Below are positions 1 through 45,122 of a DNA stretch of 64,000 nucleotides, in pieces. Origin of the DNA: a virus; the IMG/VR virus record IMGVR_UViG_3300024274_000264. One strand, given 5' to 3'. Position 1 is the stretch's first letter, and every line of letters begins with the position of its first letter. The position numbers and the translations under genes were made by a program. A model generated the notes under the pieces. The model was not told the DNA's origin. It did no database searches and was given only the letters and a program-made list of their open reading frames with translations.

Positions 1-30
1 TGATCCGCTGACTAGAGAGCTAAAACTGTT

Positions 31-489
31 ATGAAATATAATATAAAACTCATTTGTGAAAAACTCAATGTGACGCACCCACAACATGATAAAATAATGG
101 AACGTGTGTCCGAACTGAAAGCAGATGTTGAAAGTTTATTTAAAGATCAGGAATATCTGGATTTCCACTTAAAAAACAGAAACGAAGAAGCGACAGAAAA
201 ATCAGCTTTTATCTTTTTAAGACATTTGCCAAAGTATACACTCTCATTAAGTTTTCAAAACCATGAGTTTTACATTGCTGAATATGGAGAATATTTGTCT
301 GAAACAAAGATTGAAATAATGATAGCTAATGTTTTTAACATTAAGGAATATATCTTTAAAAAAATTCCAAATTATTTGAAATATAGAACTGGTGCATTTT
401 CTCTTGACCTTATAGATTATGAATTTCCGATAACAGCTTTGCCAAAAATTCATATCAAAATAAATGAACAATGGAATGGCCTCTGGTAA
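31..489 (+). CDS. Hypothetical protein immediately upstream of the first DnaE split-intein C-half
   Basis: 152-aa ORF; ATGA overlap with an upstream frame ending DPLTRELKLL*; weak similarity to ORF 1865..2320. Confidence 0.7.
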   Translation: MKYNIKLICEKLNVTHPQHDKIMERVSELKADVESLFKDQEYLDFHLKNRNEEATEKSAFIFLRHLPKYTLSLSFQNHEFYIAEYGEYLSETKIEIMIANVFNIKEYIFKKIPNYLKYRTGAFSLDLIDYEFPITALPKIHIKINEQWNGLW

Positions 490-494
490 ACATA

Positions 495-599
495 ATGAAA
501 CTAAAATCAAAAACATATAGAAAATATACTGGAAAGGTTTATGACCTTTCTGTTGAGAATAAAAGTTCGTATAACGTCGAGGGTTTTCCTGTGCATAAT
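495..599 (+). mobile_element. Split intein C-half IntC1 (35 aa); partner N-half outside window
   Basis: MKLKSKTYRKYTGKVYDLSV..FPVHN followed by S+1; block F (VYDL) and block G (HN). Confidence 0.92.
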
Positions 600-1874
600 T
601 CTGGTGCGGGATCTTTAGTTTGTTACCTTTTAGGAATTACCCAGGTTGATCCAATTAAACATGGACTTTTGTTTGAAAGGTTTTTAAGTAAAAAGAAAGC
701 ATGTCTCGGAGAAGATTCTTGGGTCTTGACCTATACGGGTCCTAAACAATTAAAAAATATTAAAATCGGAGACCGAATTAAAACTCATACAGGAAAATAT
801 TTTCCTACCGTGGCAATTGATCTAACAAAAGATCGTACAGACTGGTATGAAATTACGTATGGTTATTGGCTAAATCATACCAGTCTTGGTTTGAAAGGTT
901 TTCATAGACCATTTTATAGCGTTGGAAAATTGATAGCTAGTTCAAATCATAAATTTATTACAGCTCAACAATTTAATTGTCCACATATACAAAAAATTCC
1001 TTTAGATGTAAAATATAAAGATGTATCTGTTGAATTTATAAAATCAGTAGTAGATAATAGTTTTACAAAAACTCAGCCAAGATTTTATGGGAATGGATCT
1101 GATAATAAAACTTGGGAAATTTTTTCTATCGAAAAAGGTAAAGTCCCATTAACTTTAATTGATATTAAATTGGAAGCCGACCATACATTTTGGGTTTCAG
1201 ATAAAAAAGATGGCGTGTATGTTTTATCCCACAATTCCTTACCTGACATTGATAGCGATTGTGCAGACAGAGAAGAGGCAATTAAAATTCTTATCGAGCA
1301 TTTTGGAGAAGAATGCGTATTACCTGTTTCAAACTATAACCAACTTCAACTTAAATCCTTAATTAAAGATTTGGCTAGGTTATACCAAATTCCATTTGAA
1401 GAAATCAATCCAATTACTCAAAAAATTGAAAAAGAAACACTTGACGAAGATAAGAAACAAGATGGTTTCGATCGAGGTGTTTGGTTTCTTTCTTATGAAA
1501 GTGCCGAGAAAAACTCTCCAACTTTTAACAAACTATTGGAAGATTATCCACAACTTGAAGCGAGCATAAAAGTATTATTCAAACAAATAAAATCATGTTT
1601 TACGGAGGACACATTACTGTTGACTAACAGCGGTTGGAAAAAATACTCTGAAATTACAGAGCAAGACAAGATAGCATTTATTGACAACGTTGGAGAAATT
1701 CAATATAGTTCAGACTTTTTTAAAGTCGAAAATGGAGAAAAAGAAGTTTACAAAATTGAAACTTTAGATGGAAAGGTTTTGGAACTAACTGAAGACCATT
1801 TAGTTCAAACCGATAAAGGTTGGAAACAGGTAAAAGATTTAACAAATGAGGATTCTCTAATCGGATGGATATAA
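495..1874 (+). CDS. dnaE: DnaE fragment (IntC1 - palm extein with cis mini-intein - IntN2)
   Basis: Exteins SGAGSLVCYLLGIT..LLFERFL and SLPDIDSD (two catalytic Asp); begins with an intein C-half and ends with an intein N-half; ATG 495 preferred over 471. Confidence 0.95.
   Translation: MKLKSKTYRKYTGKVYDLSVENKSSYNVEGFPVHNSGAGSLVCYLLGITQVDPIKHGLLFERFLSKKKACLGEDSWVLTYTGPKQLKNIKIGDRIKTHTGKYFPTVAIDLTKDRTDWYEITYGYWLNHTSLGLKGFHRPFYSVGKLIASSNHKFITAQQFNCPHIQKIPLDVKYKDVSVEFIKSVVDNSFTKTQPRFYGNGSDNKTWEIFSIEKGKVPLTLIDIKLEADHTFWVSDKKDGVYVLSHNSLPDIDSDCADREEAIKILIEHFGEECVLPVSNYNQLQLKSLIKDLARLYQIPFEEINPITQKIEKETLDEDKKQDGFDRGVWFLSYESAEKNSPTFNKLLEDYPQLEASIKVLFKQIKSCFTEDTLLLTNSGWKKYSEITEQDKIAFIDNVGEIQYSSDFFKVENGEKEVYKIETLDGKVLELTEDHLVQTDKGWKQVKDLTNEDSLIGWI
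702..1235 (+). mobile_element. Cis mini-intein (178 aa, no endonuclease) in DnaE
   Basis: CLGEDSWV start, SSNHKF block B, LIDIKL..HTF block F, SHN/S end; removal restores ERFLSKKKA-SLPDID. Confidence 0.92.
1596..1874 (+). mobile_element. Split intein N-half IntN2 (92 aa)
   Basis: CFTEDTLLLT block A, LTEDH block B, GWKQVKDL then stop. Confidence 0.93.
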
Positions 1875-2320
1875 AGCAATTTTTTTCTGAAGACTATGAA
1901 AAAGTAACTTTAGAAAAGTCTCAAGCTGTTTTTGAATTGTTTTATAGTTTGGTTGATCAGTTAAAAACTAGAAAAATTATACATTCGGAAAAATTGATAT
2001 TGCTTGAAGAATTAGATGTATTTGCTATTAGTTGTCAAGATATGTCTATTGAATTTTTACGCAAATGTAAGTTCTTATCCGAAAAAGAGATTCAAGAGAT
2101 GTTTGTTACTATTTATACAATTAGCGATGAAAAAGTTCTTACCCCACACGATACTTGGATTTGGATTAATAATATCCAACTAACAAATAAATTTAAACCA
2201 CAATTTTCTTTAGGTATAAATTATGATGGAATTGAACTCTATTCTTATCTTTTGGAAATAGAAAATCAAAAAATAATAGGTCTCAAGTTGGAGCGAGAAT
2301 TCGGCGATGAAACAGAATAA
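1865..2320 (+). CDS. Hypothetical protein between IntN2 and IntC2
   Basis: 151-aa ORF overlapping both flanking dnaE pieces; no endonuclease motif recognised. Confidence 0.75.
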   Translation: MDIKQFFSEDYEKVTLEKSQAVFELFYSLVDQLKTRKIIHSEKLILLEELDVFAISCQDMSIEFLRKCKFLSEKEIQEMFVTIYTISDEKVLTPHDTWIWINNIQLTNKFKPQFSLGINYDGIELYSYLLEIENQKIIGLKLEREFGDETE

Positions 2321-2441
2321 AATAATCTCAATTCAAAAAATTGGTAAGAAACCTGTCTTTGATATTCACCACAATATTCCAACAGGTGCTTTTATTGACG
2401 ATCAGCCTAATATAGTGACCGAAGCTGGATTAATTTCAAAT
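2307..2441 (+). mobile_element. Split intein C-half IntC2 (45 aa, atypical)
   Basis: KIISIQKIGKKPVFDI..GLISN then C+1; joining gives KQIKS-CGRHAGG, matching the DnaE RxxGxHAGG motif. Confidence 0.88.
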
Positions 2442-3533
2442 TGCGGTCGCCACGCTGGCGGCGTTGTCCTCACTGACTCGCCGATCGAAAACCAGAATAT
2501 GCCTCTGATTATTGGCGGCAAGGGTGAGAAAAGATCGCTCCAAACACCTTGGACAGAAGGTGTAAACTTCAGAATGCTAGAACATTTTGGATTTCTTAAG
2601 TTTGACTTTTTGGCACTTGGAACACTCCGTATTTTTGAAAACACGGTAAGAAAAATATTAAAAAAACAAACAGGAAGACAAGAATCCGAAATACCATTTG
2701 AAGAAGTTCAAAAATGGTTTAATGATCATTTGTCACCAGACAATAATCCAATGGATGATCTTAAAGTTTATGAAAACGTGTTTTGGAATGGAAATTTTAT
2801 TTCGATTTTCCAGTTCGTAAAACCAAACACACAAGATTTTATGAAAAGGATGAAGCCTAGATCGGTCAAAGATATTGCGATTGCGACTTCAATACACCGC
2901 CCAGGCCCACTAGGATTAAAAGTAGATAGAGACTTTTTAGCGAATAGAGCAAACCCAGATTTGATTAAATATGAACATCCATTCTTAAAAGAAGTTTTAG
3001 AACCAACAAGCGGACTCTTAATTTTTCAAGAACAGTTACAGTTAATTTATCATCATTTATGTGGAGTTCCTCTCGACGAAACAGATTCCGTTCGTAAAGC
3101 ATTTACAAAGAAAGAAATCAACAACAAGGAAAAAGCGGCAAAAGAACGTGAGAAGTTAAAAGCTGAGTTTGTAGAAAAAACAAAAACCTTTGCAGGTCTT
3201 GAAGAACAAAAGGCATCAAAGTTTTTTGATAAAATGGAAAAATTGGTTGCGTATTCGTTTAACCAATGTTTGCATGGAGATTCACTTGTAGAAACTCAAA
3301 ACGGATTTAAGAAAATTAAAGAGGTTATACCAAACCAAGATTTAGTCAATAGTGTCAATGGATTTGTAAAAGTAAAAAATAAGTTTGAAAATGGTGTGAA
3401 AAATTTGGTTAAAATTAAAACGAAGTCTGGTAAAGAATTAGTCTGTACGTTAGATCATAAAATTCAAACACCTAATGGCATGAAAACTGTTAAAGAAATA
3501 ATAGAGCAAAAGCTTCAAATTATAGTAAAATAA
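2307..3533 (+). CDS. dnaE: DnaE fragment (IntC2 - palm/fingers extein - IntN3)
   Basis: CGRHAGGVV, FLKFDFLAL (third catalytic Asp), IFQF, HRPGP, LIFQEQL, AYSFNQ. Confidence 0.95.
   Translation: MKQNKIISIQKIGKKPVFDIHHNIPTGAFIDDQPNIVTEAGLISNCGRHAGGVVLTDSPIENQNMPLIIGGKGEKRSLQTPWTEGVNFRMLEHFGFLKFDFLALGTLRIFENTVRKILKKQTGRQESEIPFEEVQKWFNDHLSPDNNPMDDLKVYENVFWNGNFISIFQFVKPNTQDFMKRMKPRSVKDIAIATSIHRPGPLGLKVDRDFLANRANPDLIKYEHPFLKEVLEPTSGLLIFQEQLQLIYHHLCGVPLDETDSVRKAFTKKEINNKEKAAKEREKLKAEFVEKTKTFAGLEEQKASKFFDKMEKLVAYSFNQCLHGDSLVETQNGFKKIKEVIPNQDLVNSVNGFVKVKNKFENGVKNLVKIKTKSGKELVCTLDHKIQTPNGMKTVKEIIEQKLQIIVK
3267..3533 (+). mobile_element. Split intein N-half IntN3 (88 aa)
   Basis: CLHGDSLVET block A, CTLDHKI block B, then stop. 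Confidence 0.93.
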
Positions 3534-3553
3534 TTGTATCTGGTTTTAGTCAA

Positions 3554-3691
3554 ATGCAAAAATGTATGATCTGTAATCAAGAATTTAAGGTTATAAGATG
3601 GAAAATATTACGAATTTGGGAAAGCGAGATTAATTCTGATTTTGATTCGGTTCTCAAAAAAATAGAAGCTTTTGTAAAGGAAAAAAAATAA
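3554..3691 (+). pseudogene. Internally deleted Vsr/DUF559-like endonuclease remnant (45 aa)
   Basis: Own translation MQKCMICNQEFKVIRWKILRIWESEINSDFDSVLKKIEAFVKEKK*: a CxxC start fused to the WxxLRIWE motif; TAATG-coupled to IntC3. Confidence 0.7.
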
Positions 3692-3801
3692 TGCTAGACG
3701 AGATCGATTCTGTTGAGTTTTATGGTATTGAAGAAACTTATGATTTGGAAGTGGATCATGAAGACCATACTTTTTATGCTAATGATATTTCTGTTTCTAA
3801 T
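3691..3801 (+). mobile_element. Split intein C-half IntC3 (37 aa, very acidic)
   Basis: EIDSVEFYGIEETYDLEV..HTFYANDISVSN then S+1; joining restores YSFNQ-SHA (FNKSH motif). Confidence 0.92.
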
Positions 3802-4833
3802 AGCCACGCAATTTCTTATTCAATAGCTACTTTTCAATGCAGCTATCTTTTAACATATCATCCAGATGAATGGATAACAGCTTGTTTAGATTATGCCGCT
3901 CTTGAAAAGGGTAAAGTTGTTGGTCAAGAAGATCCCAAAGCTGTTGCAATGAGAGAGGCACAAAAACTTGGCTATAAATTCTCAAAACCAGATATTAACT
4001 TCTCAAGTGCGGGATATGAAATGCATCCATTTAAAGAAAAAACAATAATTCCAGGATTGACAACAATTGATGGAATTGGAGAAGCAGCGCTCGAAGAAAT
4101 TAACAGAAATAAACCTTATAAAGATATAAAAGACTTATTAATAAAAGAAGATGGTTCTTGGAAACATTCTAAATTTAATCGTAAAGGATTAACAAATCTT
4201 ATTTGCTTAGAGGCCCTCGATAGTTTAAATCTTGTTTCGCCAACTGGTGAATTATCAAATTACAAACAAGCGTTTAATGTTATTGTCGAAAATTTTGATT
4301 TATTAAAGAAAACTTCAGCAAAGAAGAAAAATAATAACATTCAACCAATTTTAGATGAACTAATAAAAAAAGAACAAGAATTAAAAACAGAAGATTGGTC
4401 AAGAGCAGAAAAAACTAAATATTGGCTCGAACTTGCAGGTAGCGCAGACTTAAGTTTAATTCTTGATCCAAAATATTTTGAAGCAATAAAAGAGATGAAT
4501 CTTATAAGCGTTGATGAGATTAGAGAAATCGATTTTCTTGAAGAAGGAGAAAAGAAAAAGATCACAGAACAAGTTTGGTTTATTTTAAGAAAAGCAATAT
4601 TAAAAACAACAAAAACAGGAAAAATTTACGCCGAACTCTCTGTAATTGGAGAAAAGTTTTCAGACTTAACAGTAAAAGTTTGGGACATAAGTCCAACAGA
4701 AAACTTCGAAGCGTACCCAGTGTACGAGGTTTATTGCGGATCAATTACAAAAGACAAATATGGACTATCAACCAAACTAGATAAAATTGCTTCTTTGTCA
4801 GAAATTTATGATTATCTTTTTTCTGGCAATTGA
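3691..4833 (+). CDS. dnaE: DnaE C-terminal fragment (IntC3 - fingers/HhH/OB-fold)
   Basis: SHAISYS, YHPDEW, PDINFS, GLTTIDGIGE (HhH), C-terminal OB-like KTTKTGKIYAEL. Confidence 0.93.
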   Translation: MLDEIDSVEFYGIEETYDLEVDHEDHTFYANDISVSNSHAISYSIATFQCSYLLTYHPDEWITACLDYAALEKGKVVGQEDPKAVAMREAQKLGYKFSKPDINFSSAGYEMHPFKEKTIIPGLTTIDGIGEAALEEINRNKPYKDIKDLLIKEDGSWKHSKFNRKGLTNLICLEALDSLNLVSPTGELSNYKQAFNVIVENFDLLKKTSAKKKNNNIQPILDELIKKEQELKTEDWSRAEKTKYWLELAGSADLSLILDPKYFEAIKEMNLISVDEIREIDFLEEGEKKKITEQVWFILRKAILKTTKTGKIYAELSVIGEKFSDLTVKVWDISPTENFEAYPVYEVYCGSITKDKYGLSTKLDKIASLSEIYDYLFSGN

Positions 4834-4869
4834 CTACAATTTCGAAGATTCATACTTATATGAGTTAAA

Positions 4870-6246
4870 ATGGCACAAGGTATAAAAAATAGAAAAATTG
4901 GTGATATTTTTATTGATGAAGGAAACAAACAAATAATCTATACATTAACAAAACTTGAAATTTTTAATGGTGAATTTGGTAATATCAATTCTGATATTTT
5001 AAACTTAATAGAGAATGAGACATTCGAAGTAGCAAACAAGGTTAATATTAAAAAAACAGATCGTGTGAAAAGTGCTGTATTAGTACAGTTAACACGAAAT
5101 AAAACTAAGCAAGAATATAACTTAGTTAGATATTTTGATAAAGAAATTAATTCAAAATCTGATATTCCTACATGGGGAGGATTAAGTCTAAGAGATGATT
5201 TTGATCTTAGGTTTGGGATTAAACCAAGACTAAAATCTGCTATTGCGGGGCAAGCATTATATCAGCCATCAAAATTTGACTTTTCTGAATTGTTCACAGA
5301 CACAAAATCAATTGTCGAAACGGACAGATTTCAAGATCCAAATAAAATTTATAATACTTTGTTAAAAAAAGCAAAAGGAGATAGAACTAAGTTTGGATTA
5401 GTTATTCTTAAAATTTTGCTTGGATTAAAAAATAATAATTCAATTACAATACCTGATGGTTCACGTTTTTTAAAAGAAATAAATATATATGTTTCAGAAT
5501 TTATTGTTCCGTTGATGATTGCAATGAATAAAACATCAATTATGTTTGATAAACCGATGCTGAATATTGCCTCTAAGGCAAACCAAATAGGTTATGATGC
5601 AGAAATAAAAGATTTAACTTCTGGAAAAAATTATTTGGTTTCTGTAAAGCAGGGCGGTAGTCGTAGCAAACATGGAGCCTATGGATCAATTGCTTTTATT
5701 GCAAAGATTTTATCTGAAAAAAGATCAGTTTTAGAAAAACGAATATCAAATTTTGATTTGTTTGAAAAACTTTTAGGTATACTTCTTGGAAATTCTTCTT
5801 CTGAAGAAGATGAGAAAAATATAATATTATCGTTAACAAAACGAAAGACTTATAAAAATTTAATTGCTGTTGCCTCTAAACTTGGAATAGACAATTCTCA
5901 AATTGATACAATTACGACACAATTAAGTTCGCCAAGTTTTAATTTCGATCAAAAGATTGAATTACTTAATAAATTTGCATTAAATGTTTATTCAAAACTG
6001 AATGAAAATAAATGGTTCAAAGAGACTACAAAAACTATTTTGCAACTTGTGAATTTCATTCAAGCAAAACTTCTTATAACATCAAATAAGAATGGCGACC
6101 TACAAATACTTGGTGTTGAAGTTAACACACTGGATGAAAATGAAATTGATTTTAGTGCCAAGAAAAGCTATTTTGGAAATAAGTTGGCTACTGGACATGG
6201 TGGGTTTTTACTAAAAGAAATCGAAAAAGAAACTTTAGAATCATAG
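4870..6246 (+). CDS. Hypothetical protein, possible PD-(D/E)XK nuclease-like fold
   Basis: 458-aa ORF; YDAEIKD..LVSVK resembles a D..SxK variant; TACTTA 11 nt upstream. Confidence 0.45.
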   Translation: MAQGIKNRKIGDIFIDEGNKQIIYTLTKLEIFNGEFGNINSDILNLIENETFEVANKVNIKKTDRVKSAVLVQLTRNKTKQEYNLVRYFDKEINSKSDIPTWGGLSLRDDFDLRFGIKPRLKSAIAGQALYQPSKFDFSELFTDTKSIVETDRFQDPNKIYNTLLKKAKGDRTKFGLVILKILLGLKNNNSITIPDGSRFLKEINIYVSEFIVPLMIAMNKTSIMFDKPMLNIASKANQIGYDAEIKDLTSGKNYLVSVKQGGSRSKHGAYGSIAFIAKILSEKRSVLEKRISNFDLFEKLLGILLGNSSSEEDEKNIILSLTKRKTYKNLIAVASKLGIDNSQIDTITTQLSSPSFNFDQKIELLNKFALNVYSKLNENKWFKETTKTILQLVNFIQAKLLITSNKNGDLQILGVEVNTLDENEIDFSAKKSYFGNKLATGHGGFLLKEIEKETLES

Positions 6247-6282
6247 TCTTTTCTTTATTTAAAGGTTATAATTAATTTTGTT

Positions 6283-7194
6283 ATGAATGATATCCTTGAC
6301 GAAAACACAAAAGAAAAGCTTAAAAGAAAAATAAAAGAATATATTCCAGTGAAAGATAAAATCATTACCGAAGCAAAAACCTTCATTTCGGAAGCTGTGT
6401 ATTTTATTGCAAAACCATTTATTCTTAAAACAGAAAAACTAAGTCCTTTCACAAAAGACAATCATTTTTCTCTTTATAGAAGCTATATAGAAGCCGTAAA
6501 TCAAATTAGCCCAAAAATTGATACGGTTAATAAAGTCATGGATTCGTTAAATCCAACAAATTCTGAATTCAGAAGACTAAAACTTGATGAACAATCTAAT
6601 TTCAATGGAATAAAGTTTCACGAACTCTATTTTTCAAACATATCCGACTTAAATTCTCAAGTTAGAGCAGATAGTATTCCATTCATAAGACTCTCAAAAG
6701 ATTTTGGAACATTCGAACAGTGGCAATTAGATTTTAGATCATGTGGAATGGTTGCTTTAGAAGGTTGGGCAGTATGTTACTATGATCCATATTCAAAAAA
6801 ATACATGAACTGTGTTATCGAAAAACACTCAGAAAATATACCAGTTATGGGAATTCCAGTTATTGTTGTCGATACTTTTCATCATGCTTGGTTTAAAGAT
6901 TATAGTGGCGATAAAAAAGGCTACCTTAATGGGACTCTTCAAGAGTTAAATTGGGCAGTTATAGAGCAGAGAATGATGATTGCCGAAAGAGCAAACTTAG
7001 ATCAAATTTATGCGGTACAACCAATTCAAACTTCGAATATTAATTCTTTGGTTGCAATGGATGCGCCAGTTAATAAAATGCCAATAGAACCAGTTCCAGG
7101 AATGCCAGGTATAACACCAACTCTTCCTCCAGTAACAACACAACAACAACCTTTAGTTTCAATTAAAGAAAGCAAAAAAAATGAAAAAAAATAA
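6283..7194 (+). CDS. Fe/Mn superoxide dismutase-like protein with N- and C-terminal extensions
   Basis: HFSLYRSY, FHELYFSN, DFGTFEQW, GWA, DTFHHAW (cf. DxWEHAY), LNW. Confidence 0.85.
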   Translation: MNDILDENTKEKLKRKIKEYIPVKDKIITEAKTFISEAVYFIAKPFILKTEKLSPFTKDNHFSLYRSYIEAVNQISPKIDTVNKVMDSLNPTNSEFRRLKLDEQSNFNGIKFHELYFSNISDLNSQVRADSIPFIRLSKDFGTFEQWQLDFRSCGMVALEGWAVCYYDPYSKKYMNCVIEKHSENIPVMGIPVIVVDTFHHAWFKDYSGDKKGYLNGTLQELNWAVIEQRMMIAERANLDQIYAVQPIQTSNINSLVAMDAPVNKMPIEPVPGMPGITPTLPPVTTQQQPLVSIKESKKNEKK

Positions 7195-21268: not shown

Positions 21269-23563
21269 ATGAACGAAGAGCAAAAACAAAAAACCGCATT
21301 AATAACTGGTGTTACTGGGCAGGATGGTTCTTATCTGGCTGAGTTTCTTTTAGAAAAAGGGTATAGAGTGATTGGAATGAAAAGAAGAACAAGTATCATT
21401 TCTACTTCTAGGATAGACCACATTTATTCAAATCCAAATTTTATTCTAGAGTATGGAAACATGAGCGACGCATCTTGTTTTTGGAATCTATTGTCAAAAT
21501 ATAAACCTGATGAGATTTATAATCTTGCAGCTCAATCTCATGTTAAAACATCTTTTGATGTTTCAGAAGAAACTCTTGATATAGATGGCGCAGGAGTTTT
21601 AAAACTACTTAATGCGAGTAAAGCAATTATTCCAAATGCTAGAATTTACCAAGCGAGTTCTTCCGTTACAGGGGAGACACCAGTTCTTATCAGAAAAAAT
21701 AAAAATGAAATAAAATTAGAAAAAATAGAAAATTTAGTTAACCCAAAATTAGAAAAAACGGAATATTCAAATCTTGAATGTTTAACTATTGATAGAAAAA
21801 CATTAAAATTAAAATGGTCTCCAATCGCTTATGCTTTTACTCATAAGTCATCAAATGTTTATAACATAAAAGGGACTGGTGGATTTAATATTGGAATAAC
21901 AGGCAATCACTCTGCTATGATTATTGATAAAAATGGAGAATTAGTTGAAAAGAAAATTGATGATATAAAAATAGGAGATTATCTACTTTCTTACATGTCT
22001 TTCAATAATAATTTTGAGGAAAAGGAAAGAGTTTATCCTATTTTTGATTTGAGAAAATTTGCGAATTCAAAAAAATATATAACAAGATCCAATAGTCAAA
22101 TTGATTCATTAGTTATTAATGATGATATTTGTAGATTAATTGGATTTTATTTGGCAGAAGGAAATGTTTTTATAAAAGAAAAGAAAACATACAAAACAAC
22201 TTTTACTTTTCACATAAAAGAAAAATATTACACGGACGATATTAAAAATATTGTAAAAAACAACTTTGGAATTGATTGCTGTGAATCAGAATTCGTTTCA
22301 AGAAATACTCGGAAAATTCAATTTTCAAGCAAGCAATTTGCTAAATTTTTATTAGAACAATTTAAAACAGGATCAAAAAAGAAAGAAATTCCAAGTTGGA
22401 TATACAATTTGCCGAAATCTGCATTTGTTAATTTAATGCAAGGATATGTTGGAGATGCCAAAATTTCAAAAAATGAAATTAGATATACTTCAGTAAATAA
22501 ATCAATGTTACAAGCTTTACTTTATATTTCAAAATTAAATGGAATGTCTCCAACTTTTTTAGATAGAAAAACAGGTGCATTTGATCTGTTATTTTCTTCA
22601 AAAGATAAAAAAGAAATATTAGGTACAACTGAAATAGATTTAAAGTTTAAACAAGCCAATGGAACATTAATTGAATCAAATGTTTTCAACAATTTAGCAC
22701 CAACGTATATAAGAAAACTTAACGGGTATAAAAAAAATATTTCAAAAGAAAAAATATTAAATACTTTAGAAAAATTAAAAACGAAAACTGAGTTGTCGGA
22801 AAATTTAATAAAATTAGAGAGATTATCCAACTCAGACATTCATATTGTGAAAATTAAAAAAATTGAAAAACTTAAAGAGGAAAATATTAATGTTTACGAT
22901 CTTCATGTGCCTGAAAGTCAAATTTTTATTGGCGGAAATTATCCGTTAATTTTACACAATAGCGAAATTTTCGGGACAAACCCAGAAGTTCCTCAAAATG
23001 AAGAAACTAAATTTATGCCTGCGTCACCTTACGCTTGTGCAAAAGTGTTTGCCCATAATATATGCATAAACTATAGAGAAGCATACAAGATGTTCATTTG
23101 TCCAGGAATTTTACAAAATCATGAAAGCCCAAGAAGAGGGGAAACGTTCGTAACAAGAAAGATTACTTTAGCTGCTGCAAAAATAAAACTTGGAATGCAA
23201 TCCAAATTAGAACTTGGAAACTTAGACGCAAAACGGGATTGGGGCTATGCAAAAGAATATGTTGAGGCTATGTGGTTGATGCTACAACAACCTAAACCAG
23301 ATGTTTTTGTTATTGCAACAGGAGAAAATCATTCTGTTAAAGAATTTGCAGAAACGGTTTTCGAGTATGCTGGTTTAGATCTTAAAGATCATCTTGTGAT
23401 CAATCCACGACTTTTTAGACCACACGAAGTGCCATGTCTAAAAGGTGATTATTCAAAAGCGAAGAGAATTCTTGGATGGGAACCAAAAGTTAAATTTAAA
23501 GAGCTCGCGCAAATTATGTATAATTCAGATTTAGATCTTCTAAAAAAAGGAATAATCAAATGA
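21269..23563 (+). CDS. gmd: GDP-mannose 4,6-dehydratase with LAGLIDADG intein
   Basis: [27 protein letters not shown]|[39 protein letters not shown]. Confidence 0.95.
21662..22960 (+). mobile_element. Ser1 intein (433 aa) with LAGLIDADG endonuclease in gmd
   Basis: [10 protein letters not shown] start, ITGNHS block [20 protein letters not shown] end. Confidence 0.92.
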
Positions 23564-42455: not shown

Positions 42456-45122
42456 ATGAAAAAAGAGAAATATAAAATCTTATTATTGTCTGATGATTTA
42501 AGATGTGTTTCTGGTGTTGGCGGTCAATCGAGAATGCTTGTCGAAGCATTAGTTTCAAGCGGAAAATTTTCCGTAAAGCAATTGGGTGGCGCAATGAAAC
42601 ATCCAAATTACGACATTCAGATGCTTCATCCAGATATTGTTGTTAAACCTGTAGATGGATTTGGAACCCCAAATCTTTTAAGACAACTTTTAATAACTGA
42701 AAAGCCAGATGTCCTTTTATTATTCACAGATCCAAGACAGTTTGTTTGGGTTTGGCAAATGGAAGATGAAATTAACCAAATATGTCCAATTGTGTATTGG
42801 CACGTTTGGGATAACGATCCATATCCAGAATACAATTCAGCATTTTATGAGAGTACAGATGTAATAAATTGTATTTCCATGAAAACATATGATTTGTTAA
42901 AAGATAGATATCCAAATAAAGTAAACTATCTCCCACATACCTTTCCAAAAAATTGGTATTATGAATTATCAAAAGAAGAAGTCGAAAAGCTAAAAGCAGA
43001 AACTTTAAAAGATAGAAAAGATTGGTTTTTTACATTATGGGTCAATCGTAATGCTCACCGAAAAATGCCAGCAGATGTTATGCAAGGATTCAAACTTTTT
43101 CTTGATATGCTTCAAGAAAAAGAAGGACATAAAAATGCTTTGCTCGTAATGCACACAAATCCAAAAGATCCAGAAGGGCCAGATCTTGAAGCAGTAGCAG
43201 AAATGCTTAAAATTTCTGACAGGGTAATGTTTTCTGTTGGGCAAATAGATATTCCAGATATGAATCGACTTTACAATGTTGCCGACACCATTGTTAATGT
43301 TTCGAGGGCCGAGGGTTTTGGCCTTTGCTTGGATTTTTCCACGAAATTATCAACCAAAGAAGGTATAAAAAATATTTCTGATATTGAAACAGGAGATTTT
43401 GTTTTATCTTTGGATGGTACTTATAATAAAGTTTTAGCCAAATCAAAAAGAAAAGAAAATAATGTTGTAAAAATAAAAGCATCAAGAATAAAAGAAATTA
43501 CATCTTCTAAAGAACATCCATTTTTAGTTTGTAAAGATCCAGAAACATCTCCTGATGAATTGAAATGGGTTCAAGCTTCTGAAGTTAAAATTGGTGATTT
43601 TCTCTGTATCCCAAAAAATAAAGAAATTTTTAACGGAGAATACAAAACAATGTTTAAAATAACAGATTTCCTTTTAGCGGAAGATGTTTCTAAGCTTGAA
43701 TTCGAAGATAAATTTGTTTATTTTCCAATGGGTTTTTCCAGCATTGCCAATGGTATTTCAATAAAAGAAATAGGAAATTTATTAGGTTTAAAAAAACATC
43801 ATTCTGAAATTTTACGAAAATATATTGGCAATATTCCACAACGAAGAGGCGTAAAAATAAAAGAAAGATTAGAAAAACAAAAACAGGAATTAATAAAACT
43901 AATACCAGATCTTAAAATCAACAAAAAATTAATAAAAGTTAATAACGAATTGAAAATAAATGAAGAATTTATGAAAATTTACGGCTGGTACCTTGCAGAA
44001 GGTTCTGTTGGAAAAAACTTAAAATCTTCATTAGAAATTTCTTTTCATATTGACGAATTGGAAGTAGCAAATTGGTTTAAAACTTATTTTAAAGAAAATT
44101 TCAATGTTGATGGGAAAATAGAAATACATAAAACTCAAAACAAATGTAGATTTGTTTGTTCTTCTTCTATCTTGGCTAAATTTTTTGGAACTATTTCTGG
44201 CTATGGAGCGAAACAAAAATCGATACATAAACAATTTTTGCCATTGTTGAAAAATAAAGAATTTGCAAGTGCCTTAATAAAAGGATTATTCTTGGGGGAT
44301 GGACATTTTTCAAAAAATAAAAAAGTAGCATCTTACAATACAATAAGCCCAATTTTAATAAATCAAGTTATTGAAACACTCCATATGTATAATATTTGTC
44401 CAAATTTATATATCAAAAAAGCAAATGAGCAATTTAATCAAAAAGAATCTTATCAACTTGGTTTCACTGGTAAAGAATATGAAAAACTTTGCGCATTTAT
44501 AAACAAAAAACCAAACACTTCTAAAAGTGAAGGAAAAAATCACACTTTATATTTTACAGAAAATAAAATTTTTGTTCCTGTTACATCTAGCAAAACTGTA
44601 ACTTTGGATTCTGAAATTGATTTATTTGATATCCAAGTCGAAAATACTCATAACTTTGTCGCCAATAGAATTATTGTACACAATTCTACATTACAAGCAT
44701 TAACACTGGGCAAACCAGTTGTTGCGTTAAAGACTGGTGGCATGACCGAACAAATGACCGATAAAAACGGCAATGTTCACGGTGTTGCTCTAGAACCAGT
44801 AGAAAGATATCTTGTTGGATCACAAGCAACGCCATATATTTATGATGATCATTTTTCAAAAAAAGAATTAGCAGAAGGACTTTATAAGGTTTATAAACTT
44901 ACACCAGAAGAAAAAGAAAAAATTAATAGAGAAGCAAAAGCTCACGTTGAAGAACAGTTTAATTATGAAACTGTTACAGGCAAATGGATTCAAATTCTTG
45001 AACAAACAATCCAAAATTGGAGAGAAGATAAAAAAGAAAAAAATTGGGGATTAATACAATTTAATACTCCCAAAAAAACTATGAACGAAGTCCAAATAAA
45101 CAAACCAAAGGTGAAAAAATGA
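42456..45122 (+). CDS. GT4 glycosyltransferase with LAGLIDADG intein
   Basis: SGVG, VNRNAHRK, EGFGL|STLQA, GKPVV..TGG. Confidence 0.92.
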   Translation: MKKEKYKILLLSDDLRCVSGVGGQSRMLVEALVSSGKFSVKQLGGAMKHPNYDIQMLHPDIVVKPVDGFGTPNLLRQLLITEKPDVLLLFTDPRQFVWVWQMEDEINQICPIVYWHVWDNDPYPEYNSAFYESTDVINCISMKTYDLLKDRYPNKVNYLPHTFPKNWYYELSKEEVEKLKAETLKDRKDWFFTLWVNRNAHRKMPADVMQGFKLFLDMLQEKEGHKNALLVMHTNPKDPEGPDLEAVAEMLKISDRVMFSVGQIDIPDMNRLYNVADTIVNVSRAEGFGLCLDFSTKLSTKEGIKNISDIETGDFVLSLDGTYNKVLAKSKRKENNVVKIKASRIKEITSSKEHPFLVCKDPETSPDELKWVQASEVKIGDFLCIPKNKEIFNGEYKTMFKITDFLLAEDVSKLEFEDKFVYFPMGFSSIANGISIKEIGNLLGLKKHHSEILRKYIGNIPQRRGVKIKERLEKQKQELIKLIPDLKINKKLIKVNNELKINEEFMKIYGWYLAEGSVGKNLKSSLEISFHIDELEVANWFKTYFKENFNVDGKIEIHKTQNKCRFVCSSSILAKFFGTISGYGAKQKSIHKQFLPLLKNKEFASALIKGLFLGDGHFSKNKKVASYNTISPILINQVIETLHMYNICPNLYIKKANEQFNQKESYQLGFTGKEYEKLCAFINKKPNTSKSEGKNHTLYFTENKIFVPVTSSKTVTLDSEIDLFDIQVENTHNFVANRIIVHNSTLQALTLGKPVVALKTGGMTEQMTDKNGNVHGVALEPVERYLVGSQATPYIYDDHFSKKELAEGLYKVYKLTPEEKEKINREAKAHVEEQFNYETVTGKWIQILEQTIQNWREDKKEKNWGLIQFNTPKKTMNEVQINKPKVKK
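43326..44684 (+). mobile_element. Intein (453 aa) with LAGLIDADG endonuclease in GT4
   Basis: CLDFST start, SKEHPF block B, YGWYLAEG and IKGLFLGDG, LFDIQV..HNF, VHN/S. Confidence 0.95.

Follow-up and report, generated by a model that had tools for sequence, protein, structure and literature searches.

A viral DnaE polymerase gene in four pieces, with three different split inteins and one cis intein

How can a single replicative DNA polymerase be made from a gene that lies in separate pieces, and are such breaks genuine? These questions are raised by dnaE in a stretch of 64,000 nucleotides (nt), hereafter the window, from the IMG/VR virus record IMGVR_UViG_3300024274_000264. The record is 390,884 base pairs long, has direct terminal repeats and ~30% G+C and is estimated to be complete; the window corresponds to G000:C1:165141-229140 on the minus strand. 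An earlier note, made from the letters of the window alone, had proposed that dnaE is fractured here into at least four genes joined by three different split inteins, with one further intein acting in cis and with a fourth, PHP-containing piece outside the window. We find the dnaE gene in exactly four pieces, with three different split inteins and one cis intein. The sequences lead us to consider it probable that a single DnaE polymerase is produced from the four genes by three trans-splicing reactions and one cis excision.

The three open reading frames (ORFs) of the window and the intein-extein architectures first read from them are confirmed by ORF calls, Pfam and matches to solved structures. 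The pieces and their parts are given below in order, with coordinates in the window unless stated, lengths in amino acids (aa), and IntN and IntC for the N- and C-terminal halves of a split intein. Omega values compare the window with its 91%-identical relative, locus L009, at a synonymous divergence (dS) of ~0.9.

Piece 1: G000:C1:244231-246081 (outside the window), same strand as the window genes; 616 aa, made up of PHP, the palm start and IntN_a
IntN_a: C-terminal part of piece 1, same strand; 96 aa, Cys1, TKDH, net charge -8
Piece 2: 495..1874, + strand; 459 aa, made up of IntC_a, extein 2a, cis mini-intein b, extein 2b and IntN_d
IntC_a: 495..599, + strand; 35 aa, end VHN, +1 Ser, net charge +4, omega 0.15
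Extein 2a: 600..701, + strand; 34 aa, SGAGSLV...FLSKKKA, Taq DnaE ~418-458
Cis mini-intein b: 702..1235, + strand; 178 aa, Cys1, block B SSNH, end SHN, +1 Ser, charge +5 overall
Extein 2b: 1236..1595, + strand; 120 aa, SLPDIDSD...KQIKS, aligning from Taq 460, omega 0.023
IntN_d: 1596..1874, + strand; 92 aa and stop, Cys1, TEDH, net charge -10, omega 0.065
Piece 3: 2307..3533, + strand; 408 aa, made up of IntC_d, extein 3 and IntN_e
IntC_d: 2307..2441, + strand; 45 aa, end ISN, +1 Cys, net charge +1, omega 0.049
Extein 3: 2442..3266, + strand; 275 aa, CGRHAGG...YSFNQ, palm end and fingers, E. coli DnaE 503-759 (E 7e-25)
IntN_e: 3267..3533, + strand; 88 aa and stop, Cys1, TLDH, net charge +7, omega 0.093
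Piece 4: 3691..4833, + strand; 380 aa, made up of IntC_e and then the C-terminal extein 4
IntC_e: 3691..3801, + strand; 37 aa, end VSN, +1 Ser, net charge -12, omega 0.075
Extein 4: 3802..4833, + strand; 343 aa and stop, SHAISYS..., HhH and C-terminal region, E. coli DnaE ~757-891

Do these pieces amount to one polymerase? Pfam places the PHP domain in piece 1 (E 1.7e-25), DNA_pol3_alpha in piece 2 (E 1.3e-24), the C-terminal part of DNA_pol3_alpha and the finger in piece 3 (E 2.9e-30) and HHH_6 in piece 4 (E 2.2e-11); it also matches Intein_splicing/Hint on the C-terminal tail of piece 2. As expected of a family C polymerase, PHP, palm, fingers and HhH follow one another in order and the catalytic Asp triad is complete. 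The triad is divided between pieces as had been claimed, the first two aspartates (PDIDSD) being in extein 2b of piece 2 and the third (KFDFL) in extein 3 of piece 3. The predicted PHP piece ending in GRG and an IntN exists: when PHP and DNA_pol3_alpha matches were sought across the genome, one further ORF came up, on the same strand, although 15.6 kb away and not adjacent. This piece 1 aligns to Taq DnaE 5-426 in a solved-structure match that reaches Taq ...GPGRG, and its own C-terminus reads LLGAGRG, followed by the 96-aa IntN, which begins CFLPGT. Alignment to Taq DnaE resumes at 460 immediately past the 178-aa insertion in piece 2 (Cys first, SHN|S last, the bar marking a junction), and the alignment of piece 4 begins at E. 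coli DnaE ~757-760.

The motifs VHN|SGAGSLV, KQIKS|CGRHAGG, YSFNQ|SHA, PDIDSD and KFDFL are all present, and splicing in silico gives a product of 1,292 aa. Ten uninterrupted viral DnaE homologues are 1,131-1,313 aa long and 39-51% identical to this product, and the four junctions align to them without gaps, save that a single homologue has an additional residue at site b. At site a, for example, GAGRG|SGAGSLV in the window stands opposite GNGRG|SAAGSLL in locus L019, and at site d KQIKS|CGRHAGG stands opposite KQIKS|QSRHAGG in locus L025. In other words, removal of the inteins restores a continuous DnaE, just as the earlier note had it.

Further ORFs of the window flank or separate the pieces:

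ORF152: 31..489, + strand; 152 aa, unknown protein directly upstream of piece 2
ORF151: 1865..2320, + strand; 151 aa, conserved, between the halves of split intein d
ORF45: 3554..3691, + strand; 45 aa, between the halves of split intein e

Are the breaks genuine? The record is a metagenome assembly, and the breaks could be artefacts of assembly or sequencing; alternatively, they could be repaired at the level of RNA by introns, RNA trans-splicing or ribosomal bypass. We found no support for either and regard both as extremely improbable. The exact ORF151 protein occurs on 15 contigs, and the five that were compared as DNA, all of them Logan assemblies from different sequencing runs, match positions 1-6320 of the window, or parts of that span, at 99.6-100% identity with zero indels. 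The gene series 467-151-408-45-380 is repeated in these assemblies, where ORF152 is found too. Assembly artefact as the cause of the breaks is excluded by these five independent assemblies, and the same breaks occur in related contigs of other samples. As for repair at the RNA level, an Rfam scan of the locus and the 17-kb interval upstream found zero families, hence no group I or II intron, and each break carries complete complementary intein halves, which would be pointless if the RNA were repaired. Two of the ways out that had been listed in advance, assembly error and RNA splicing across the gaps, were thus checked and neither was borne out.

What, then, are the inteins? All four have Cys1, a block B of the form (T/S)xxH, a terminal Asn and Ser or Cys at +1. 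Inteins a, d and e have the residues and lengths of class 1 split inteins, with the split between blocks B and F, and the cis mini-intein b has no endonuclease domain. Among solved structures, IntN_a is closest to the NrdJ-1 and Ssp/Npu DnaE inteins (the Ssp/Npu matches being weak, E 6e-5 to 4e-4), IntN_d to the Spl DnaX mini-intein and IntN_e to the gp41-1 intein (E 7.7e-5). Pairwise identity across the three split inteins is 22-38% for the IntN halves and 14-23% for the IntC halves, and phmmer gave no cross-hits among the IntC halves. By their sequences, the three split inteins are assigned to different intein lineages. The charge polarity of intein e, read as IntN against IntC, is reversed relative to that of a and d.

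In the mechanism that we favour, intein b would excise itself in cis after translation. The three cognate IntN/IntC pairs would then meet, form HINT domains and trans-splice, with electrostatic help in the capture of cognate halves, and the outcome would be a scarless polymerase of 1,292 aa. Orthogonality is to be expected, because pieces 2 and 3 each bear the IntC of one intein and the IntN of another, so that a cross-reaction would lead to cyclisation or to a skipped piece. Divergence in sequence may provide specificity, as may the reversed polarity of intein e; the difference in lineage and this reversal should limit mis-pairing and the self-cyclisation of pieces 2 and 3. With regard to origin, inteins and free-standing homing endonucleases may have repeatedly invaded conserved DnaE sites, after which the endonucleases would have decayed and the halves at site a would have been separated by ~30 unrelated genes.

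Several points weigh against a spliced and indispensable polymerase. Inteins a and d do not differ in charge polarity. Outside the window, a 342-aa ORF (G000:C1:256500-257528, - strand) resembles PolA, at 22.9 bits where the cut-off is 34.3, and replication of the phage by a host polymerase is possible in principle. It is because of this weak PolA-like ORF and the possible role of a host polymerase that we call the phage DnaE only apparently essential. No other DnaE or PolB gene was found in the complete 391-kb genome, and this DnaE is the sole DnaE-type replicative polymerase of the phage. The PolA-like ORF itself, which lies beside the RecA locus, matches the C-terminal half of the PolA palm (...VIHDALLF...) and could represent a family A polymerase in minimal or fragmentary form.

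Could the fractured dnaE simply be decaying under a burden of selfish elements, in a phage whose DNA is copied by the host replicase or by some other polymerase? Inteins are unusually plentiful in the genome, and the weak PolA-like ORF would also fit this explanation. Counter to it, omega is 0.02-0.18 for the exteins and lies in the same range, 0.05-0.15, for the intein halves IntC_a, IntN_d, IntC_d, IntN_e and IntC_e; the intein halves are under purifying selection. Moreover, there are zero frameshifts or internal stops in any piece, the DnaE motifs are all intact, and the four-gene layout is retained in relatives down to 64% identity. We consider decay very unlikely.

Purifying selection does not by itself distinguish splicing from docking. 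The pieces might assemble non-covalently, with the intein halves serving as high-affinity docking modules at all or some of the junctions, and selection would act on a docking module too. In a predicted complex of IntN_a and IntC_a, the pair that was modelled, the score is 0.72 against 0.00 for the best control, with contact agreement of at least 93% among runs and a partner pLDDT (predicted local distance difference test) of at least 70; the mark for this score is met by 58 of 80 solved complexes and by 2 of 110 mismatched pairs. The halves of pair a are thus predicted to associate into a HINT fold, although the model speaks of association and not of chemistry, and it may have passed through its resemblance to split-intein complexes already solved and not be independent evidence. 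Against docking alone, the residues needed for chemistry, namely Cys1, the block B His, the terminal Asn and the +1 Ser or Cys, are kept in all three split inteins and in their relatives. Cys1, TKDH and the C-terminal region of IntN_a are invariant in four genomes, H34-N35-S36 (HN|S) of IntC_a is invariant in five, and dozens of homologues from metagenomes retain ...ISN|CGRHAGG. Intein-bearing alleles show Cys at +1 of site d, a position at which L, V, I or Q stands in eight of the ten homologues without an interruption. Such a residue is sensible only if the nucleophile is used, and from the alignments it reads as the footprint expected of a nucleophile kept for splicing. Assembly by docking is, in our judgement, unlikely.

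Is the fracture peculiar to this genome? We compared 85 loci, consisting of the best 80 of at least 533 IMG/VR relatives and five closer ones that include this genome. The gene is a single uninterrupted ORF in 53 of the 85 and has one break in about a dozen; three or more breaks are confined to the clade of the window, and locus L032 has two. The search of related phages for the same pattern, which the earlier note had advised, thus gave a positive answer, in that L006-L010 all have a multi-piece dnaE. Five intein sites occur in the lineage: a (GRG|S), b (KKK[A/M]|SLPDID), c (PDID|SD), d (IKS|C) and e (SFNx|S). Automated site naming in the census mixes up the neighbouring sites a, b and c, and the assignments used here are from sequences read directly. 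The site states are as follows:

Window: a split, b cis, c empty, d split, e split
L009 and L010 (91% identical): a split, b empty, c empty, d split, e split
L006 (89% identical): a split, b split with a nuclease gene, c cis, d split, e empty
L008: a split, b split with a nuclease gene, c cis, d split, e split (Ser1) with a large ORF between the halves
L007: a split, b empty, c split at an unusual point, d split, e split (Ser1) with a 330-aa ORF

These states imply that dnaE of L008 is in five pieces. The nuclease gene at site b in L006 and L008 encodes 311 aa and is PD-(D/E)xK-like with a Zn-finger. In L009 and L010, which lack intein b, piece 2 is 281 aa long, exactly the 459 aa of the window less the 178 aa of the intein. 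Variation may also exist at a finer scale. A contig of run SRR31980957 with an identical ORF151 has genes of 162 and 395 aa upstream of it and no 467-aa piece 2, which suggests a strain in which site b is split with no endonuclease gene between the halves, and also suggests polymorphism in intein state inside a near-identical phage population. At site c, the unusual split point of L007 (L007:8171-9559) leaves an IntC of just ~12-20 aa (e.g. MKKLHSFYESGFSIVSHN|SD), with block F in the N piece; the metagenomic DnaE fragments P0024, P0038, P0041 and P0081 begin like this short-IntC piece.

How did piece 1 come to lie so far from the others? It is upstream of piece 2, at 15,584 nt from the start of the latter, and ~30 ORFs occupy the interval, among them genes for a histone-deacetylase-like protein, an S8 protease, DHFR, an HNH nuclease, an RNA ligase fragment and thymidylate synthase. 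Piece 1 is likewise roughly 11-15 kb upstream in L006-L008, where the contigs reach that far. In the more distant loci L027, L029 and L031 the site-a intein allele is split with its halves adjacent and an ORF of 270-320 aa between them; the IntN halves there are 39-48% and the IntC halves 51-57% identical to those of the window. Because these distant relatives keep the halves adjacent, the wide separation in the lineage of the window appears to be secondary. A 115-aa Cys-rich ORF after IntN_a was considered as a relic of an endonuclease and rejected, as it resembles none of the 23 inter-piece ORFs of the relatives and has no Pfam match. Elsewhere in the interval, 8.7-10.5 kb upstream of the window start (L017:8660-10494, - strand), there are five tandem ORFs of 118-128 aa that look paralogous and whose ends resemble ...PQKIEVNLK.

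Within the window, the genes are tightly packed. Piece 2 starts at 495 (MKLKSK...), the position at which its relatives begin; a longer ORF from 471 was rejected on the same grounds. The ORF152 stop is 5 nt from the start of piece 2, piece 2 overlaps ORF151 at ATGGATATAA (the ORF151 start), the end of ORF151 overlaps piece 3 by 14 nt, and the ORF45 stop overlaps the piece 4 start at TAATG. Promoter-like and terminator-like matches at the locus were not above those in shuffled sequence, and transcription units could not be defined from them. Given that the genes overlap or abut and that promoter and terminator matches are not in excess, pieces 2-4 are probably co-transcribed and translationally coupled.

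Do the intervening ORFs encode the endonucleases that would be expected of fractured genes? Same-strand ORFs with split-intein halves at each break are present here; free-standing endonuclease genes between halves are found in the relatives and not in the window. No nuclease family was matched by the intervening ORFs of the window in Pfam or PHROG, and tblastn with the endonucleases of the relatives gave no significant match in either the locus or the genome. ORF151 fills the gap of split intein d throughout the clade, with an ORF of 139-162 aa at its position in L006-L009, and has an omega of 0.21 against L009. It starts MD(I/V/M), because its start codon region overlaps the IntN_d stop. The idea that ORF151 is a homing endonuclease was rejected, since it has no Pfam or PHROG family. 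Just five close homologues were found among 5.8 billion proteins, matches in an atlas search were under the lead level, and the AlphaFold model (pLDDT 48.8) is too poor for a fold search. ORF152 also has no Pfam or PHROG family, and the notion that it is a paralogue of ORF151 is unsupported (BLASTP E 0.16). Between ORF45 and the Vsr-like nuclease at the RecA locus there is a weak match of 11 residues (...WESEI, E 0.003 in a single comparison). Neither L009 nor L010 conserves ORF45, and L007 has an intact 330-aa gene at its position. We regard ORF45 as a probable remnant, now decaying, of a Vsr-like homing endonuclease.

How does the locus relate to known systems? Cyanobacteria reportedly have a split dnaE, with dnaE-n and dnaE-c at separate loci, and in Trichodesmium erythraeum the split dnaE is said to carry additional inteins, with further cis inteins in the same gene. 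In both cases the parts of a replicative DnaE come from separate loci and are united by protein trans-splicing, here a predicted one. The cyanobacterial gene has one split intein, however, and the best match at site e is gp41-1, not Npu or Ssp DnaE. The cyanobacterial insertion site, which we take to be AEY|CFNK, is four residues upstream of site e (YSFNQ|SHA). None of the inteins here is the cyanobacterial DnaE split-intein allele: the IntN that resembles Ssp/Npu, IntN_a, sits at another site (GRG|S).

A closer parallel is offered by the fractured genes of environmental phages, as defined by Dassa et al. 2009 (PMC2677866). In those loci too a split intein divides a conserved gene of DNA metabolism, DnaE being among the hosts, into ORFs on the same strand, and Vsr-like free-standing endonucleases lie between the halves, just as an endonuclease lies between halves in the relatives L006-L008. 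Three DnaE loci were described, at three sites that differ from the cyanobacterial site, every one of them on a separate contig that also has an endonuclease gene, and the DnaE-1 locus contains part of an additional intein (Dassa et al. 2009, PMC2677866). The earlier note had stated that fractured phage genes use a single split intein. This stands for the published loci, with the reservation that those three DnaE sites are known from separate short contigs, one of which has the partial extra intein. In contrast to such single breaks on short contigs, three split inteins and a cis intein are found here in one protein of a complete genome, no recognisable endonuclease is present at the breaks of the window, and one pair of halves is 15.6 kb apart. 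The system is an extreme variant of fractured genes and not a new kind. Its novelty lies in how many split inteins one protein has, in the fact that every endonuclease has been lost and in the location of one pair of halves at distant loci. In the literature we found no report of one protein with three or more natural split inteins, but subscription journals were mostly outside the search and absence is unproven.

The other parallel is synthetic. Pinto et al. 2020 (PMC7090010) described one-pot ligation of three to six blocks in a defined order with up to five mutually orthogonal split inteins (gp41-1, NrdJ-1 and others). As in that scheme, the middle blocks here bear the IntC of one intein and the IntN of another. 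The synthetic set was drawn from inteins of unrelated genes; the present set appears to have co-evolved in one natural protein.

This leads to a wider proposal, which we put forward tentatively and which is possible but far from assured. The phage may hold a co-evolved trio of orthogonal split inteins that are active in one cell on one protein, in which the polarity reversal would set the order of assembly and block cyclisation of the middle pieces, and in which the separate piece 1 might act as a post-translational AND gate that times the start of replication. With its allelic series at five sites (empty, cis, split, and split with an endonuclease), the lineage would then be a live record of how inteins are split and become fixed. 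Split inteins are major tools of protein engineering, but few sets work together without cross-reaction, and those few were put together by hand from unrelated genes. If our reading is true, one natural protein that needs three split inteins supplies pairs already selected to coexist, and the charge reversal of e relative to a and d offers a testable rule for order and specificity. Close relatives that differ only in site states form an unusually clean series for intein splitting, spanning the splitting of a contiguous intein by an endonuclease gene, the loss of the endonuclease, and a break that becomes irreversible once other genes intervene. It also follows that a very heavy load of selfish elements can be borne by a replicase that is apparently essential.

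DnaE is not the only intein host of this phage, whose genome has at least nine inteins, those of DnaE and RecA included. RecA, outside the window at G000:C1:252710-255374 (- strand, locus L014), is fractured by an atypically split intein. Its N piece of 261 aa ends ...ILHGDA|C followed by only ~17 intein residues, and an overlapping 628-aa ORF combines a Vsr-like nuclease (...YGDYWH..., ...LWESEI), a long IntC (ending INHN|TTTPGG) and the C-terminal part of RecA; the Pfam RecA matches are 6-199 and 200-262. In the window, a GDP-mannose 4,6-dehydratase (21269-23563, + strand) contains a cis intein of ~420 aa (Pfam Intein_splicing, E 2.6e-19) and is an intein host from sugar metabolism, outside the usual hosts in replication and repair. 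A group 1 glycosyltransferase-like protein (42456-45122, + strand) has an intein with a LAGLIDADG endonuclease domain. Elsewhere in the genome, an adenylosuccinate synthetase bears an HNH/NUMOD4 intein (L015, G000:C1:349800-352300) and an ATP-dependent DNA ligase bears a mini-intein (L016, G000:C1:386300-388300).

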